NCBI RefSeq assembly: GCF_013122565.1
Contig: NZ_CP053258.1
DNA: 64,000 nucleotides
Direction: 5' to 3' (one strand)
Origin: Escherichia coli
GTDB taxonomy: Bacteria > Pseudomonadota > Gammaproteobacteria > Enterobacterales > Enterobacteriaceae
This document shows, piece after piece, positions 3,457 through 61,442 of the stretch; position 1 is the stretch's first letter, and every line of letters begins with the position of its first letter. The translations under genes and the position numbers were made by a program. The notes under the pieces are model-generated. The model had not been told where the DNA came from. It searched no databases and saw only the letters and a list, made by a program, of their open reading frames with translations.

Positions 3457-4589
3457 GACTGAAGATTCTCCGCAAGCCATGATGCCAGCTCGCCCGGTGT
3501 CATGGCGGCTATTTGTGCGCCGATATTAACCAGCGCCTGGGCCGTATCGTGGTCATAGCAGGGTGTTGCGTTGCTATCGAGCGCCGCCAGTCCCAGCACT
3601 TTGATGCCGCTCTGGACACACTTTTTCACCTGATGCGTCAGCAATGATGATGAACCCCCTTCGTAAAAATCGCTCACGAGGATAATGACGCTTTTTGCTG
3701 GTTGTTCAATAAGTTGCCGACCATACTCCACGGCACTGGCGATATTGGTCCCGCCACCCAACTGTACTTTCATTAATAACTCTACCGGATCGGCAACGTC
3801 TGCCGTGAGATCAACGACGCTTGTGTCAAACGCCACCAGATGGGTACGAATGCCGGGTAACTGCCACAAACAGGCCGCCATCACCGCAGAGTGGATCACC
3901 GAATCGACCATCGAGCCGCTTTGATCAACCAGTAAGACCAGTTGCCATTGTTCGCTTTGGCGTTTAATGCGGCTGTTAAAGCGGGGGGATTCGATATACA
4001 ACTTGCCGTGTTGCGGGTGCCAGTGTTGCAGGTTGGCGCGCAGAGTACTTTTGAAATCAAAGTTTCGCGCCAGTGGAATAAATGAGCGGCGACGGCGATC
4101 GCGGACACCAGAAAAAGCCTGACGAACCTCCTTTGCCAGTTGTGCCATAATTTCTTCCACAACCTGGCGCACTATCCGGCGGGCGGCAGCCAGTACTTCG
4201 GGATTCATCAGATGTTTGGTGTGCAAAACGGCGCGTAGCAGGCTTTCAGAAGGCTGCATACGTTCCAGCACGTCGAGATTTGTCACCACATCTTCAATGC
4301 CGTAGCGCAGTACGGCATCGCTTTCCAGCCGCTCAATCACCTGTTGCGGAAACAGCGTGTGAATACTGTTGATCCACTCAGGAGTGGTGAGATTTGAGCC
4401 ACCTAATCCACCGGAGCGTTCACCACGCTGGAGCCGTTCAGGATCGCGCCCATACAGCCACTCCAGCGCGTGGTCTATCTGCCGGGCGTTGTCATCCAGC
4501 CCACAAAGCGTCGTTTCTGCCGCTTCGCCAAGAATTAATCGCCAGCGTTGTAGTTCACGGGTGGTCAGAAGATCGTTCAGTTCAGACAT
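3453..4589 (-). CDS. yehP: von Willebrand factor A domain protein YehP (378 aa)
   Basis: MIDAS-type DxSxS motif (LLVDQSGSM); ORF 3453..4817 trimmed to MSELNDLL start 3 nt after the yehM stop. Confidence 0.85.
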   Translation of the reverse strand: MSELNDLLTTRELQRWRLILGEAAETTLCGLDDNARQIDHALEWLYGRDPERLQRGERSGGLGGSNLTTPEWINSIHTLFPQQVIERLESDAVLRYGIEDVVTNLDVLERMQPSESLLRAVLHTKHLMNPEVLAAARRIVRQVVEEIMAQLAKEVRQAFSGVRDRRRRSFIPLARNFDFKSTLRANLQHWHPQHGKLYIESPRFNSRIKRQSEQWQLVLLVDQSGSMVDSVIHSAVMAACLWQLPGIRTHLVAFDTSVVDLTADVADPVELLMKVQLGGGTNIASAVEYGRQLIEQPAKSVIILVSDFYEGGSSSLLTHQVKKCVQSGIKVLGLAALDSNATPCYDHDTAQALVNIGAQIAAMTPGELASWLAENLQS

Positions 4590-56416: not shown

Positions 56417-56484
56417 CATCTGTCACAAATGCCCTCCGGTGTTTGCACCGGAGCGGCGTTTTGTATCCTACAAACGAGGTCACT

Positions 56485-57762
56485 ATGTCGTTAACAAATA
56501 AACAATGGCTGGGATTACCCTTAAATCTGGTGTGGGGATATATTGCCATTGCCATCTTTATGACCGGAGACGGTTTTGAACTGGCATTCCTGTCGCATTA
56601 CATTAAAGCACTGGGTTTCACGCCTGCAGAAGCCTCCTTTGCCTTTACGCTCTATGGCCTGGCGGCAGCGCTTTCCGCCTGGGTTTCCGGCGTAGTTGCC
56701 GAAATCATTACGCCACAAAAAACCATGTTTATCGGCTTCGTGCTGTGGTGCGTATTTCACGTGCTGTTTCTTGTCTTTGGTCTGGGGCAGGCGAACTATG
56801 GGTTAATCCTGCTGTTTTATGGTATTCGTGGCCTGGCCTATCCGCTGTTCCTCTACGCCTTTATTGTGGCGATTGTCCATAACGTACGCAGTGACAGCAC
56901 CAGTGCTGCGCTGGGCTGGTTCTGGGCAGTTTACTCTATTGGTATCGGCGTATTCGGCAGCTACATCCCCAGTTTTACCATTCCACTTATTGGCGAAATG
57001 GGAACATTATGGCTGGCGCTGGCCTTCTGTGGGGTTGGTGGCGCTGTTGCGTTAATTTCTATGCGCAAAGTAGAAACACCACGCCATATGCAAAACCTCA
57101 CCACAAAAGAGAAGTTTAGCGAACTGGGCCGTGCGGTGACTTTGCTTTATACCAACCGCAATATTTTGCTTTCCAGTATTGTTCGCATTATCAACACCTT
57201 ATCTTTATTCGGATTCGCCGTAATTATGCCGATGATGTTTGTTGATGAGCTGGGCTTTACCACCTCTGAGTGGTTGCAGGTCTGGGCAGTCTTCTTCTTT
57301 ACCACCATCTTCTCTAACGTATTCTGGGGCGTGCTGGCAGAGAAAATGGGCTGGATGAAAGTTGTTCGCTGGTTTGGTTGCGTGGGAATGGCGCTTTCAA
57401 GCCTGGCGTTCTACTACATGCCGCAACATTTCGGTCATAACTTTGCTATGGCGCTGATACCTGCGGTGGCACTGGGGATCTTTGTTGCTGCATTCGTACC
57501 GATGGCAGCCGTTTTCCCGGCACTGGAACCGAAACATAAAGGAGCAGCTATTTCGGTTTATAACCTTTCCGCCGGGTTGTCCAACTTCCTTGCTCCGGCA
57601 ATCGCCGTGGTACTTCTGCCTTATTTCAGTACTATTGGTGTGGTTATCGCTTACACCACCCTGTATGTGATAGCGTTTATTATTTGCCCGTTTATTCGCG
57701 TCGAACAACCGGGATTCTCAAATCAGCAAGTGTGTGAAGGGAAGACCGCCACCATTTCCTGA
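56485..57762 (+). CDS. dalT: MFS polyol transporter (arabinitol transporter-like)
   Basis: Start at MSLTNKQWLGLPL; paralog of 47482..48756. Confidence 0.75.
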   Translation: MSLTNKQWLGLPLNLVWGYIAIAIFMTGDGFELAFLSHYIKALGFTPAEASFAFTLYGLAAALSAWVSGVVAEIITPQKTMFIGFVLWCVFHVLFLVFGLGQANYGLILLFYGIRGLAYPLFLYAFIVAIVHNVRSDSTSAALGWFWAVYSIGIGVFGSYIPSFTIPLIGEMGTLWLALAFCGVGGAVALISMRKVETPRHMQNLTTKEKFSELGRAVTLLYTNRNILLSSIVRIINTLSLFGFAVIMPMMFVDELGFTTSEWLQVWAVFFFTTIFSNVFWGVLAEKMGWMKVVRWFGCVGMALSSLAFYYMPQHFGHNFAMALIPAVALGIFVAAFVPMAAVFPALEPKHKGAAISVYNLSAGLSNFLAPAIAVVLLPYFSTIGVVIAYTTLYVIAFIICPFIRVEQPGFSNQQVCEGKTATIS

Positions 57763-57806
57763 TGACGACAAGCCTGGTGTGGTGCCAGGCTTTATTGCGA
57801 GGAACA

Positions 57807-58460
57807 ATGTTTAATTGTAAAGCAGTCATTTTTGATATGGACGGCGTCATCATTGATTCGGAAGGGTTATGGCGTGAGGCACAAAAGGGAGCACTGGCAA
57901 GGTGGGGCGCATGTGTCAGTGAAGAAGAGTGTATAAGACTGACTAAAGGTAAAAGGCTGGATGAGATTGCCCAAACCTGGTGTGAATATTGTCATTTACA
58001 CATTGAACCCGCACTGTTGGAAAGTGAGATTCGCCGCCTGATCACTACGTTGATTGCCGGGACGGGCGAAGCGATGCCAGGCGTTCAGGACGTGTTATCT
58101 TTTTTGCGCCGGAGTGGCTATCAACTGGCGCTGGCAACCTCTTCATCTTACCAGGTGATCGATGCTGTACTGACAAAACTCAATATTCAGCACTATTTTT
58201 CGGTGATTTGTAGTGCTGATGACGAAAAGCATGGGAAACCACATCCGGCAGTTTATCTTTCTGCACTGCGAGAATTGCAACTGTCTGCTGCAGATTGTTT
58301 GGTTATAGAGGACAGCGTGAGTGGTTTTCAGGCAGCACAGGCGGCAGGAATAAACACCATTGTGGTATCAGAAGATGCCCAACAAACCTGCTTTAATGCG
58401 GCGAGTGCAAGATATTTATCGATGAATGAATTACTGGCAGCGTTAGCCGTAGCTGCGTAA
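57807..58460 (+). CDS. HAD-superfamily hydrolase (phosphatase/beta-phosphoglucomutase-like)
   Basis: AVIFDMDGVIIDS motif at N-terminus; start chosen at MFNCK (ORF begins 57762). Confidence 0.6.
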   Translation: MFNCKAVIFDMDGVIIDSEGLWREAQKGALARWGACVSEEECIRLTKGKRLDEIAQTWCEYCHLHIEPALLESEIRRLITTLIAGTGEAMPGVQDVLSFLRRSGYQLALATSSSYQVIDAVLTKLNIQHYFSVICSADDEKHGKPHPAVYLSALRELQLSAADCLVIEDSVSGFQAAQAAGINTIVVSEDAQQTCFNAASARYLSMNELLAALAVAA

Positions 58461-58533: not shown

Positions 58534-59433
58534 TTAACGTAAAAGCGGGCAATCTGGTGGCAGACGGCAACGCAACGCTGCCGGAAGTATTTCAATATGA
58601 AAATTTTGCCCACTCAACGGTTCGCCATCAAGATTAAAGGTGATGTCGTGTGGTGCCTGAATATCAAACCACGACGAAGCGCCTTCGATAATATTCGGGT
58701 TATCTTCGTCAGATTTTAAGGTTGATACGAGAGCTGGAAGAATTTCATCGCCGGTAAAAATGCGCAGTTGCAGCAAGCCATCGTTAATTAACGCGTTCGG
58801 ACACAATTGCTGACCGCCACCGGCCTGACGCCCGTTACCAATACCAATGACCAGGGCGTCACCTTGCCAGTGAAAGTTTTCACCGTGGATTTCACAACGG
58901 TCCGGTTGCAGAGTATCCATGCGCATTAAGCCATGAATGATGTAAGAGACGCCACCCAGCGCGGCTTTTAATTTTTCCGGCGTTTCTGTGGTAATACGCG
59001 TCCCAAATCCGCCTGTCGCCATATTAATAAAACAGGTTTGTTTGTTGACCTGCGCCATATCTATCGCAATGGCGTTACCGGCAATTGCCAGTTTCAGCGC
59101 CTTATCCAGTGCCTCAGGAATCCCTACACTGGTGGCAAAATCATTGGCGGTTCCTAATGGCAAAATTCCCAGCGCGGGTATGTCATCCCCCTCACACTGA
59201 ATCAACGCCGTAGAAACTTCATTAATGGTGCCATCGCCACCACCGGCAATCACCGTTGCGACGCCCAACTTCCGGGCCTCCTCTACATATCGTGCGGCAT
59301 CGCCTTTCTCCCAGGTAACCCGCACATGGATCGTCATTCCTTCCTCACGCAACAGCATAATTGCTTCGCGCAAGGGTAGATTGTCAGTACTTTTGCCATT
59401 AAGAATCAGTAAGCTGGCGGGAAATTCTGCCAT
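58534..59433 (-). CDS. yegS: Lipid kinase YegS (299 aa)
   Basis: DAG-kinase-like GGDGT motif; synteny. Confidence 0.9.
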
Positions 59434-59846
59434 GATCGTATGTGCCTTTATGATTGGTCTGTAGATAGTGTAGAGCAGAAAAGAAAAGGTGGAGTCAGAA
59501 CAGGATGAAAGTCGGAGGATAAAAAGTCAGTTCAAGTATGGAGGATTCAGTGGTTACCACCAGGAGCTTGCAATGGGAACAGCGAATATTAACGGTAGCC
59601 ACCGATAAATTTCAAAAAAGAGCATATGCCTAATATTCAACCAAACAGTGGCATCTTAAATATACTATTCCAAATATATTAAAGCCCCATGGAGTTACCT
59701 GGAAAGGGCCTTCATGTCTGTAATTCCTACTTATGTAGGAAATGTTGTACAGAACATTTATTATAATCCTATTCAAATATAATAATCAGCCATTATTATA
59801 TTTAAACACTAGAGAGTGTCGTTGGTATTTAATGGGGAAAGGTGAG

Positions 59847-60164
59847 ATGAAAAAGATAGCTGCTATATCATTAATTAGTATTTTTATTATGTCTGGTTGT
59901 GCTGTGCATAATGATGAGACAAGTATCGGTAAATTTGGCCTTGCATATAAAAGTAATATTCAGCGTAAACTCGATAACCAATACTACACCGAAGCCGAAG
60001 CTTCTTTAGCCAGGGGTAGAATATCTGGTGCAGAAAATATAGTAAAAAATGATGCAGCTCATTTCTGTGTTACTCAGGGCAAAAAAATGCAGATAGTTAA
60101 ATTGAAGACAGAAGGTGCAGGATTACATGGCGTCGCTCGTCTGACATTCAAATGTGGAGAGTGA
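59847..60164 (+). CDS. yegR: Small lipoprotein YegR (105 aa)
   Basis: MKKIAAISLISIFIMSGC signal peptide with lipobox; ORF 59742..60164 trimmed. Confidence 0.7.
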   Translation: MKKIAAISLISIFIMSGCAVHNDETSIGKFGLAYKSNIQRKLDNQYYTEAEASLARGRISGAENIVKNDAAHFCVTQGKKMQIVKLKTEGAGLHGVARLTFKCGE

Positions 60165-60322
60165 GAATATTTTTTGGTTAGCGTCAAACATGCGCGTTCT
60201 GGCTGTGCGTAGCCGGAACCTGTGCGAGCACGATGCCGTTACGTGAAAGGCATCGTGCTATGAAGGGAGATTCTATCGATGTGGTCAATGGAAGACGGTG
60301 ACCAGGGATAGGGCTTATGTAC

Positions 60323-60349
60323 AAAAAATAAGCCCGTGTAAGGGAGATT
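60323..60349. mobile_element. P2-type 27-bp attachment core (attL of prophage)
   Basis: AAAAAATAAGCCCGTGTAAGGGAGATT, which I recall as the phage P2 att core, located about 80 bp beyond the 3' end of int. Confidence 0.7.
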
Positions 60350-60428
60350 TAGGGTGTCACCAGTAGGGGCTTTCAACGGTACAATGCGGGTTTGAGCGGC
60401 ATAAATTACCACTGAAAGCCCTTAAACG

Positions 60429-61442
60429 TTACTCTACTGTGGACACTGTGTGGACACTCTCGGCCTCAGTACCACCTCTTAGCGGATTAAGAGAAATGGC
60501 GTCCTGAAGGTACTCTGGCGCAAAATGAGCGTAAACCATAGTTTGCTCAATCCGCGTGTGACCTAGTATCCGTTGTAGCGTGATAATACTTCCTCCATTA
60601 ATCATGAAATGAGTGGCAAAGCTGTGCCTTAGTGCATGTGTGGCTTGCCCCATTGGCAAATCCGGTTTTATTGCTTTCATTGTTCGTCTGAAGCGAGGGT
60701 AATCAGCATCAGGGAATAAAAAACCTCGTTTGTTATCCGCGATCATTTTGGCAACAGCCTCTGAGATCGGGACGGTGCGTGGTTTGTTTGTTTTCGTTTT
60801 AACAAACGTGACGCGGTTATGGATGATATTTTCTGCTTTCAAACGAGCTGCTTCTCCCCAACGTGCTCCAGTACTCAGGCAAAGAATCGCAATCTTTTTG
60901 TTGTCGCCGTCAAGAGCAGCAAGCAGTAAGGCAATTTCTTCCTGCGTGAGATAGCCTGTGTCTGGTTTTTCCTCCTTAAGCCTTTTTGTCCCTCTGATAG
61001 GGTGCTCACCAAAGAATAACTCCGCTTCAATCAGGGCTGTAAACATGCCGCTAATACATGTTAAATCACGATTGATACTCGAAGGTTTAATACCCTGACT
61101 TCTTCGGGTGGCGCAGTACTGGCTGATAAGCGATTTCGTAATTTGAAATGCGCATGGGTCATTCGTTATTTTTGTGAAGATTTCAATTTTTCCAAGATTA
61201 GATTTCCCATGCTCTTCGTGTTTACCCTTTAAATCCCACCAGATCTGTGTCAGCTCCGACAGACGTCGCTTGTCTGTTGGTTTTGATAGCCATTCTTTAT
61301 TGTGGTGGTTGTACAACGTGTATTTCTCGAAAGCGACAGCTTCGCTTTTCTTATCAAACTTCCTACGGATGCGTTTTCCATTACGTCCAGTAGGGCGGAT
61401 GTCCACTTCATATCGACCATCATCGAGTTTTTTGATTGCCAT
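60429..61442 (-). CDS. int: P2-type tyrosine integrase (337 aa)
   Basis: Tyrosine recombinase catalytic residues (R...HxLRHSFATH...Y near C-terminus). Confidence 0.9.
   Translation of the reverse strand: MAIKKLDDGRYEVDIRPTGRNGKRIRRKFDKKSEAVAFEKYTLYNHHNKEWLSKPTDKRRLSELTQIWWDLKGKHEEHGKSNLGKIEIFTKITNDPCAFQITKSLISQYCATRRSQGIKPSSINRDLTCISGMFTALIEAELFFGEHPIRGTKRLKEEKPDTGYLTQEEIALLLAALDGDNKKIAILCLSTGARWGEAARLKAENIIHNRVTFVKTKTNKPRTVPISEAVAKMIADNKRGFLFPDADYPRFRRTMKAIKPDLPMGQATHALRHSFATHFMINGGSIITLQRILGHTRIEQTMVYAHFAPEYLQDAISLNPLRGGTEAESVHTVSTVE

Follow-up and report, generated by a model that had tools for sequence, protein, structure and literature searches.

A core-like 10-mer beside the P2 attL at cyaR in Escherichia coli and the putative older P2-type prophage shell around yegR

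In the 64-kb stretch of Escherichia coli DNA analysed here (hereafter, the window), a P2 prophage is joined to a chromosomal flank in which ten nucleotides, 50 nt ahead of the attachment core, repeat the end of that core exactly. Is this 10-mer a vestige of an earlier integration, a site that the integrase (Int) still uses, a functional element of the host, or a chance likeness in ordinary chromosomal DNA? The surroundings of the 10-mer, from left to right, are the following.

58534-59433, minus strand: yegS, the left end of the region around the 10-mer, with a spacer of 413 nt to yegR
59847-60164, plus strand: yegR, a lipoprotein gene (PF27694), annotated as yegR in matching E. coli records, with a spacer of 158 nt to the core
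60263-60272, plus strand: the 10-mer AAGGGAGATT, identical to core positions 18-27
60323-60349, plus strand: the functional 27-bp P2 core at attL, AAAAAATAAGCCCGTGTAAGGGAGATT, reverse complement of the cyaR terminator
60350-60463, plus strand: live P' arm of the resident P2 prophage, base for base that of P2 AF063097
about 60366-60439: Cox sites, by annotation transfer from P2
60438-60445 and 60449-60456: live P' Int arm-type repeats TGTGGACA, by annotation transfer from P2
60429-61442, minus strand: P2 integrase gene (337 aa), from the list of open reading frames, collinear with the annotated P2 int
beyond the integrase gene: open reading frames for a 99-aa C repressor and then a 91-aa Cox-like protein

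P2 Int binds the core and arm-type repeats, and IHF bends the P arm; excision is directed by Cox, which occupies the interval from the core to the P' repeats. Strand exchange takes place inside the 27-bp core, and at attR the cyaR terminator is rebuilt by the core copy that the phage brings. A core identical over all 27 bp is present in the annotated P2 genome AF063097, whose annotated features run in the order Int P-arm site, IHF site, core, Cox sites, Int P'-arm site and int. Since the window is identical to P2 at every base from 60323 through the P' arm, the junction at 60323 is an attL of P2. The Rfam family CyaR_RyeE (RF00112) is recognised in the empty allele L001 at 3487-3572 on the minus strand with 100.7 bits, and the core occupies 3484-3510. 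Because this match terminates within the core, the latter is the 3' terminator of the sRNA gene cyaR, serving as attB. No cyaR body was found by Rfam at attL in the window, as expected. Both P2 integration at cyaR (locI) and the cryptic D'-ogr remnant of K-12 are already known, and the P2 insertion sites given in the E. coli W genome paper include cyaR (PMC3032704).

Present-day integration and excision would involve only the 27-bp core, the live P' arm and the live P arm, the last of these being at attR, outside the window; no data require a part for the 10-mer in the recombination of the present lysogen. With regard to the wider neighbourhood, an RbtT/DalT-type MFS transporter and a HAD hydrolase are encoded beside yegS (56443-58460), where most E. 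coli carry the regulator of the gat operon. Such rbt/dal-type genes adjoin yegS in 334 of 5426 complete E. coli genomes, an arrangement typical of E. coli C, the classical host and indicator of P2, and thus consistent with a host similar to E. coli C.

The sequence-only reading of this DNA had reported a partial core repeat about 50 bp upstream of attL, at about 60270-60281. The repeat exists as AAGGGAGATT and the spacing of 50 nt (60272 to 60323) was confirmed, but the true position is 60263-60272, 8 nt further left and still within the 60170-60349 to which that observation referred. The extended string gaAGGGAGATTc spans 60262-60273, and of the 9-mer AGGGAGATT the window has exactly two copies, at 60264-60272 and 60341-60349. 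Compared over the full length of the core, 60246-60272 agrees at 15 of 27 positions, namely 10/10 in the right part and 5/17 in the left, and 118 of the 128,000 positions in the window score as well; the near-full identity in both halves that characterises a P2-type att core is absent. In simulated Markov flanks of 889 nt, an exact match of at least 10 nt to any part of the core was obtained on either strand in 4% of cases, and in 0.4% when the search was limited to the plus strand of the 120 nt upstream. Two or more copies of AGGGAGATT were present in 4 of 100 shuffles of the window.

The distribution of the 10-mer was surveyed in the 5426 complete E. coli genomes of RefSeq, of which 5417 contain the flank 59840-60349. 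With a 46-mer centred on the 10-mer, for which a megablast seed is possible only when the 10-mer is exact, AAGGGAGATT was found in 3195 genomes. A variant, AAGGAGGATT, which is that of K-12 and UTI89, is present in 1950, whereas AAGGGGGATT is found in the L048/L049 lineage and AAGGGGGAAT in the cryptic Escherichia sp. MOD1-EC7003 (L013). An empty site, defined as a contiguous junction of B arm, core and cyaR, occurs in 4147 of the 5426 genomes, and by subtraction at least about 1900 genomes should carry the 10-mer without a prophage. The empty allele L001, in which yegR, 330 bp and trhP/yegQ succeed one another, has AAGGGAGATT at the homologous position. As the 10-mer is present in empty sites, its origin does not lie in the resident prophage, and it belongs to the ordinary chromosome; this is the outcome that the sequence-only reading had itself named as a refutation. 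In IMG/VR prophage regions, P2 attL adjoins every allele of the 10-mer (37, 33 and 4 cases) and, in 3 cases, an allele lacking the whole islet described below. The 10-mer is a polymorphic piece of the chromosome that P2 can dispense with for integration.

The history of these alleles bears on the strength of the likeness, which is perfect only in some lineages. Since the GGGGG state is found in both divergent lineages and lies one step from each common allele, the ancestral 10-mer was probably AAGGGGGATT, identical to the core at 9 of 10 positions, as judged from these two lineages only. With this allele, the flank holds 2 near-matches to the core against 1.09 expected (P = 0.28).

The segment between the 10-mer and the core is related to phage DNA, as described for the following two features.

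60271-60322, plus strand: fossil P arm of a P2-like attP/attR, decayed, abutting the core
60280-60287, 8 nt downstream of the 10-mer: intact Int arm-type repeat TGTGGTCA, putative, by sequence likeness

The local alignment of the flank with the P2 P arm reaches a score of 38, compared with 13.7 +/- 2.1 for shuffles, none of 2000 of which attained it; the corresponding fossil of L013 scores 44, and control alignments against the wrong arm remained at shuffle level. Within 60276-60305, blocks of 15 and 7 nt match the annotated Int P-arm site exactly (TCGATGTGGTCAATG-GAAGACGGTGACCAG against GTCGATGTGGTCAATGTGTGGACGTGAC in P2). Over 60275-60305, the 'bacterial' arm of the window reads ATCGATGTGGTCAATGGAAGACGGTGACCAG; at the attR of P2 and of the K-12 remnant, the ogr terminator is followed by GTCGATGTGGTCAATGTGTGGACGTGACCAG..., which is the annotated Int P-arm site. 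Furthermore, the 20-mer TTCTATCGATGTGGTCAATG is common to the flank and the live phage L148. The second arm repeat of the fossil is degenerate (GGAAGACG versus TGTGGACG), and MAFFT introduces a 16-column gap in the IHF region of the common E. coli allele, which is 16 nt shorter. Longer P-arm fossils that include a homologue of the IHF region are present in L013, L059, L074 and L137 (in L013, ...ACCAGGGATAAATCCTTCTGTTTCATTG... versus ...ACCAGAAATAAATCCTTTTATTTCA... in P2). This significant, collinear P-arm homology abutting the core identifies a relic of attR, and the B arm of the present P2 site is a decayed P2-type P arm.

The last 5-8 nt to the left of the core (60316-60322) vary between B-arm alleles (gtac, gcat, gcac, gtat or ttacgcgt in the window and at the homologous positions of L001, L059, L091 and L100), and some of the variants are identical to the P-arm ends of live phages, such as ttacgcgt in L100, which matches phage L023. 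This variation suggests an exchange between fossil and live arms, or blocks of identity longer than 27 bp. In other respects, several P2-like phages (L147, L148, L160, L163 and L164) have the same P-arm Int/IHF module with a different core, a GCTCCTGAGGGAGCC-type terminator replacing that of cyaR, so that conserved arms are joined to swapped cores.

The proximity of an intact arm-type repeat, 8 nt away, raises the question of whether the 10-mer could be a working secondary Int-binding or pseudo-att site that modulates P2 at locI, with or without the fossil arm repeat. The right part of the core, with which the 10-mer is indeed identical, is contacted by Int, and the arrangement makes attL resemble a damaged attP. 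It is, however, only half a core, without a partner half-site, and bears no likeness to the annotated arm repeats TGTGGACA, TGTGGTCA and TGTGGACG. In addition, it is polymorphic, P2 prophages lying beside all its alleles and beside the islet-less allele, and in most alleles both the IHF region and the second arm repeat have decayed. We regard such a function as most improbable. The earlier suggestion of a secondary Int-binding arm site fails for the 10-mer itself, the real fossil repeat of this kind being TGTGGTCA.

A counterpart to the fossil P arm is located on the other side of yegR.

59521-59547, plus strand: fossil attL core (copy 1), AAAAAGTCAGTTCAAGTATGGAGGATT, 18/27 to the core, ungapped
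59548-59577, plus strand: start of a fossil P' arm, CAGTGGTTACCACCAGGAGCTTGCAATGGG, 21/30 to the first 31 nt of P2 P'

The 18/27 match of copy 1 is equalled at only 4 other positions out of 128,000, and its decay is even (11/17 in the left part, 7/10 in the right). The P' start follows in register with the core, with one gap, and the alignment of the core plus 60 nt yields z = 7.5, none of 3000 shuffles being as good. Significant likeness to P' is confined to about its first 30 nt, in register with the core; when the P' segment alone was compared over 120-300 nt, significance was not reached. In the cryptic-clade L013, the copy of the fossil core agrees at 21 of 27 positions (TACCAGTAGGG versus CACCAGTAGGGG in P2). 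Concerted evolution of copy 1 with the 10-mer was considered and rejected, as their alleles combine freely.

When one genome per species was scanned for the yegS-cyaR locus, an allele devoid of the islet was recovered in E. coli E69 (L008), where yegS is followed by about 88 nt and then by the core and cyaR, while yegR, the hairpin, the 10-mer and the P-arm fossil are all missing. Collinearity of the window with E69 extends to ...GATGAAAGTCG (59517), which places the breakpoint at 59517/59518, and copy 1 sits exactly where E69 passes from the shared yegS-side sequence into the real core. A degenerate core with an in-register P' start is thus found at the very boundary of the insertion, as expected of an attL relic. 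The E69-type left flank is also present at the attL of three IMG/VR lysogens; among the RefSeq complete E. coli genomes, no E69-type allele was found.

The same synteny is observed in Kluyvera, where one species is 'empty' (L007) and others carry toxin-antitoxin cassettes in the spacer, which supports the short yegS-cyaR spacer as the likely ancestral state. These cassettes, of the HicA/HicB-like and RelE-like/HTH types, occupy L009 2530-3322 and L011 10289-11128, and neither core relics nor a duplication were found in the Kluyvera islets. Another Kluyvera locus (L012) has a P2-like attR at the same spacer. The yegS-cyaR spacer is an insertion hot spot across genera. In a metagenome-assembled genome labelled Collinsella sp. 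(L010), a P2 ogr/attR junction is also present at an E. coli cyaR locus, almost certainly owing to contamination by Escherichia.

With a fossil core and P' start on the left and a fossil P arm on the right, the islet of roughly 0.8 kb is bounded by P2-type relics of attL and attR, and can be interpreted as the shell of an older P2-like prophage. Its interior is of another kind. Homologues of yegR with 76-81% identity reside at a different, stable locus of another genus, where they are followed by a gene for a 110-aa lipoprotein (L015, L021, L022), and nucleotide homology to that locus is confined to the yegR coding sequence. A UTI89-type segment of 170 bp after yegR (L002 3331-3500; also in L020 and L013) encodes a remnant of the N-terminus of the second lipoprotein (E = 3e-6), and has been lost from the allele of the window at 60165/60166. 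The existence of yegR homologues elsewhere, the restriction of homology to the coding sequence and the remnant of the second gene all argue for captured cargo, as opposed to phage structural DNA. When phage databases were queried with 60166-60262, only records including host flank matched.

The 3' region of yegR was inspected for elements that could confer on the 10-mer a role for the host.

60227-60259, plus strand: 11-bp hairpin, AGCACGATGCC / GGCATCGTGCT, just left of the 10-mer
60279-60311, plus strand: candidate open reading frame of 10 codons (MWSMEDGDQG), from the ATG at 60279 to a TAG ending at 60311

The RNA of the 157-nt stretch 60166-60322 is predicted to fold with -61.9 kcal/mol, compared with -45.0 +/- 3.8 for shuffles (z = -4.5), and to form two strong hairpins, at 60192-60225 and 60227-60259. 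The second of these has no T-run and received no call in the terminator scan. Most of the differences between strains in the stems are compatible with G-U pairing on the plus strand. The 10-mer could act as the Shine-Dalgarno sequence of the 10-codon frame, AAGGGAG (AAGGAGG in K-12) being located 7-9 nt before the ATG, or as an unpaired element of the yegR 3' UTR, as it is unpaired in the minimum free energy structure of this strongly folding stretch. The 10 codons are kept in K-12 (MWSMEDGYQR and stop) and in the cryptic clade (MWSMEDGYQG and stop), with some synonymous differences. Nevertheless, the fossil Int arm site by itself accounts for the start of this frame, codon 8 is D, Y, H or G depending on the allele, the alleles with the long fossil alter the end of the frame so that the 10 codons are not kept, and the Shine-Dalgarno-like sequence is itself polymorphic. 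No Rfam family was found in the flank at E <= 1, and neither a promoter nor a terminator was called there that would support a separate transcript. A host function of either type seems very unlikely. The possibility that the 10-mer is a coding remnant of the second lipoprotein gene was also rejected: the match RHRAM...DVVNG, spanning hairpin, 10-mer and arm site, reaches only E = 0.6-4 and is at odds with the P-arm match, which is much stronger. On balance, we lean towards viewing the 10-mer as a non-functional piece of the conserved yegR-cyaR spacer.

These elements can be assembled into a tentative history. A P2-like prophage would have entered the cyaR terminator before E. coli diversified. 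Its left junction would survive as the decayed core and P' start at 59521-59577, and its right junction as the decayed P arm at 60271-60322, abutting a core kept intact by selection for the cyaR terminator, while yegR and the now-degraded second lipoprotein gene would fill the interior of the old shell. The 10-mer would lie where the fossil P arm frays out on its left side, the position at which live phages have the 3' arm of a terminator and its T-tail (GGGGC-TTTTTT), and a single G-to-A change, from AAGGGGGATT to AAGGGAGATT, in one E. coli lineage would have produced the perfect likeness to core positions 18-27. The order of these events and the origin of the 10-mer in a terminator tail are what we infer from the comparisons below.

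In all live P2-like phages sampled, a terminator with a T/C tail stands directly before (T)ATCGATGTGGTCAATG, as in GAGGGGCTTTTTT-GTCGATG, GGGGCTTTTTTT-ATCGATG and CAGGGCTTCTTC-TATCGATG. MAFFT positions the 10-mer opposite the terminator 3' arm and T-tail, with its G-run aligned with the GGGG of the terminator, and as phage L148 shares TTCTATCGATGTGGTCAATG, the last TT of the 10-mer already belongs to the phage-homologous block. The in-register identity between the 10-mer region and the terminator tails is weak, at about 50% over 17 nt. The terminator-tail interpretation is favoured in that it needs no extra events, the likeness to the core then being a coincidence. Two observations run against coincidence, namely, the 10/10 match within 120 nt of the core, with P about 0.004 (about 0.04 flank-wide), and the location of the 10-mer exactly where the fossil P arm begins on the left, the place expected for an attL core after loss of the interior.

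These same two observations are what a different origin would explain, in which a P2-like phage integrated beside older inserted material and the 10-mer is the right part of a second attL core. Deletions would have removed the left 17 nt of this core, and the P' arm up to the start of the P arm, to leave AAGGGAGATT-C-TA-P arm-core; both this reading and the deletions it entails seem doubtful to us, if worth weighing. The base following the 10-mer is C, as is the base that opens P' in fossil copy 1 and in the live phage variants whose P' starts with CAGGG, and an ancestral GGGGGATTC is common to copy 1 and the 10-mer. Deletions ending in this core or beside it are known as well: in the K-12 remnant (L003), the B arm and core positions 1-19 are joined to D', the deletion starting inside the attL core, and in strain S3 the deletion begins directly after AAGGGAGATTCTATC. 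The S3 locus (L006 6001-6301) is a heavily degraded P2 remnant in which the B arm, after AAGGGAGATTCTATC, is joined to a fragment of the capsid gene, followed by IS3 and rearranged tail genes.

A second core would nonetheless be expected to have left more behind. The left 17 nt agree at 5 positions, the chance level, whereas copy 1 has decayed evenly; the 10-mer is trailed by CTA and the P-arm homologue, and not by the P' arm of an attL core; and no sequence resembling a P arm or a core is present in the 87 nt to its left. The reading also calls for two independent deletions that stopped precisely on either side of a 10-nt fragment, and the ancestral allele, at 9/10, is not significant. A tandem or nested attR within 60176-60262 was likewise sought by comparison with two references, the P arm of P2 together with the core, and the fossil arm of the window itself; no similarity was detected, shuffles being as good in 970 of 3000 global and 1966 of 3000 local alignments. 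The idea of an ancient host core with GGGGG was rejected, since other genera have kept GGGAGA as the loop of cyaR, so that GGGGG is not an old host core. The cyaR terminators of these genera, seen in several of L143-L162, have compensatory stems (GCCTGCGTAA-GGGAGA-TTACGCAGGC and GGCCTGCGCAA-GGGAGA-TTGCACAGGCC), to which the P2-like junctions there correspond, phage core and host sRNA terminator co-varying.

A decayed terminator tail, or plain chance, is thus the origin that we hold to be somewhat the more probable, in preference to the stump of a second core. With regard to the sequence-only reading, its proposal of an earlier-integration vestige stands for the region, given the fossil P arm (0/2000 shuffles) and the fossil attL, but is not demonstrable for the 10-mer itself; chance, which it had also offered, best explains the likeness of the 10-mer to the core, the ancestral allele giving P about 0.28.

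The 10-mer itself matters little, being chromosomal, polymorphic and dispensable for P2 integration. More importance attaches to its surroundings, where an older P2-like prophage has left a shell that encloses the classical P2 attB (locI) flank and the orphan gene yegR, so that the annotated 'bacterial arm' of the P2 site is former phage DNA. The fossil shell also accounts for short phage-like strings beside attL. Since homology between phage and host extends past the core, caution is warranted in the calling of att boundaries and in the use of prophage-boundary software. Furthermore, the locus provides a dated example of a single phage lineage returning to the same sRNA terminator. In our literature search, which did not extend to Barreiro and Haggard-Ljungquist (1992), no description was found of the older fossil attL/attR around yegR or of the fossil B arm. 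We may even speculate, with little expectation of being right, that the preferred site of P2 is the recycled right end of an ancient prophage, that the attL of the lysogen is a quasi-attP, and that the fossil arm affects recombination. If this were true, the fossil arm, possibly with the 10-mer, may influence site preference, the directionality of excision or side reactions between attL and attB. On the same speculative footing, the 10-mer could mark a second, nested integration.

Compared with P2 at locI in the 3' end of cyaR, the window has the identical core followed by the P2-identical P' arm and int, and differs by the 10-mer, a copy of the right end of the core 50 nt upstream in the chromosomal arm, without a core-like left half. 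The cryptic P2 remnant of K-12 (D'/yegZ, ogrK and attR) is likewise a decayed P2-like prophage at cyaR and illustrates how such relics arise. The islet relic would be far older and smaller; it has no phage genes, lies beneath that remnant, encloses the host-like yegR and is present in essentially all E. coli (5417/5426). The fossil P arm is on the same side of the core as the P arm of P2 attP and at a similar distance from it, the longer alleles matching the IHF region as well, whereas its second repeat is degenerate and 16 nt of the IHF region are missing. Finally, the 3' ends of sRNA and tRNA genes are described as reused integration hot spots with relics, for instance sdsR in Salmonella, or prophages that integrate next to other prophages (general statements in PMC3333887, PMC8112680). 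As in these cases, the same terminator core has been used repeatedly, the phage core copy restores the end of the gene, and old junctions are left as degenerate direct repeats; the cyaR locus differs in that its relic measures about 0.8 kb and in that the surviving right arm serves as the 'bacterial' arm for the present P2.
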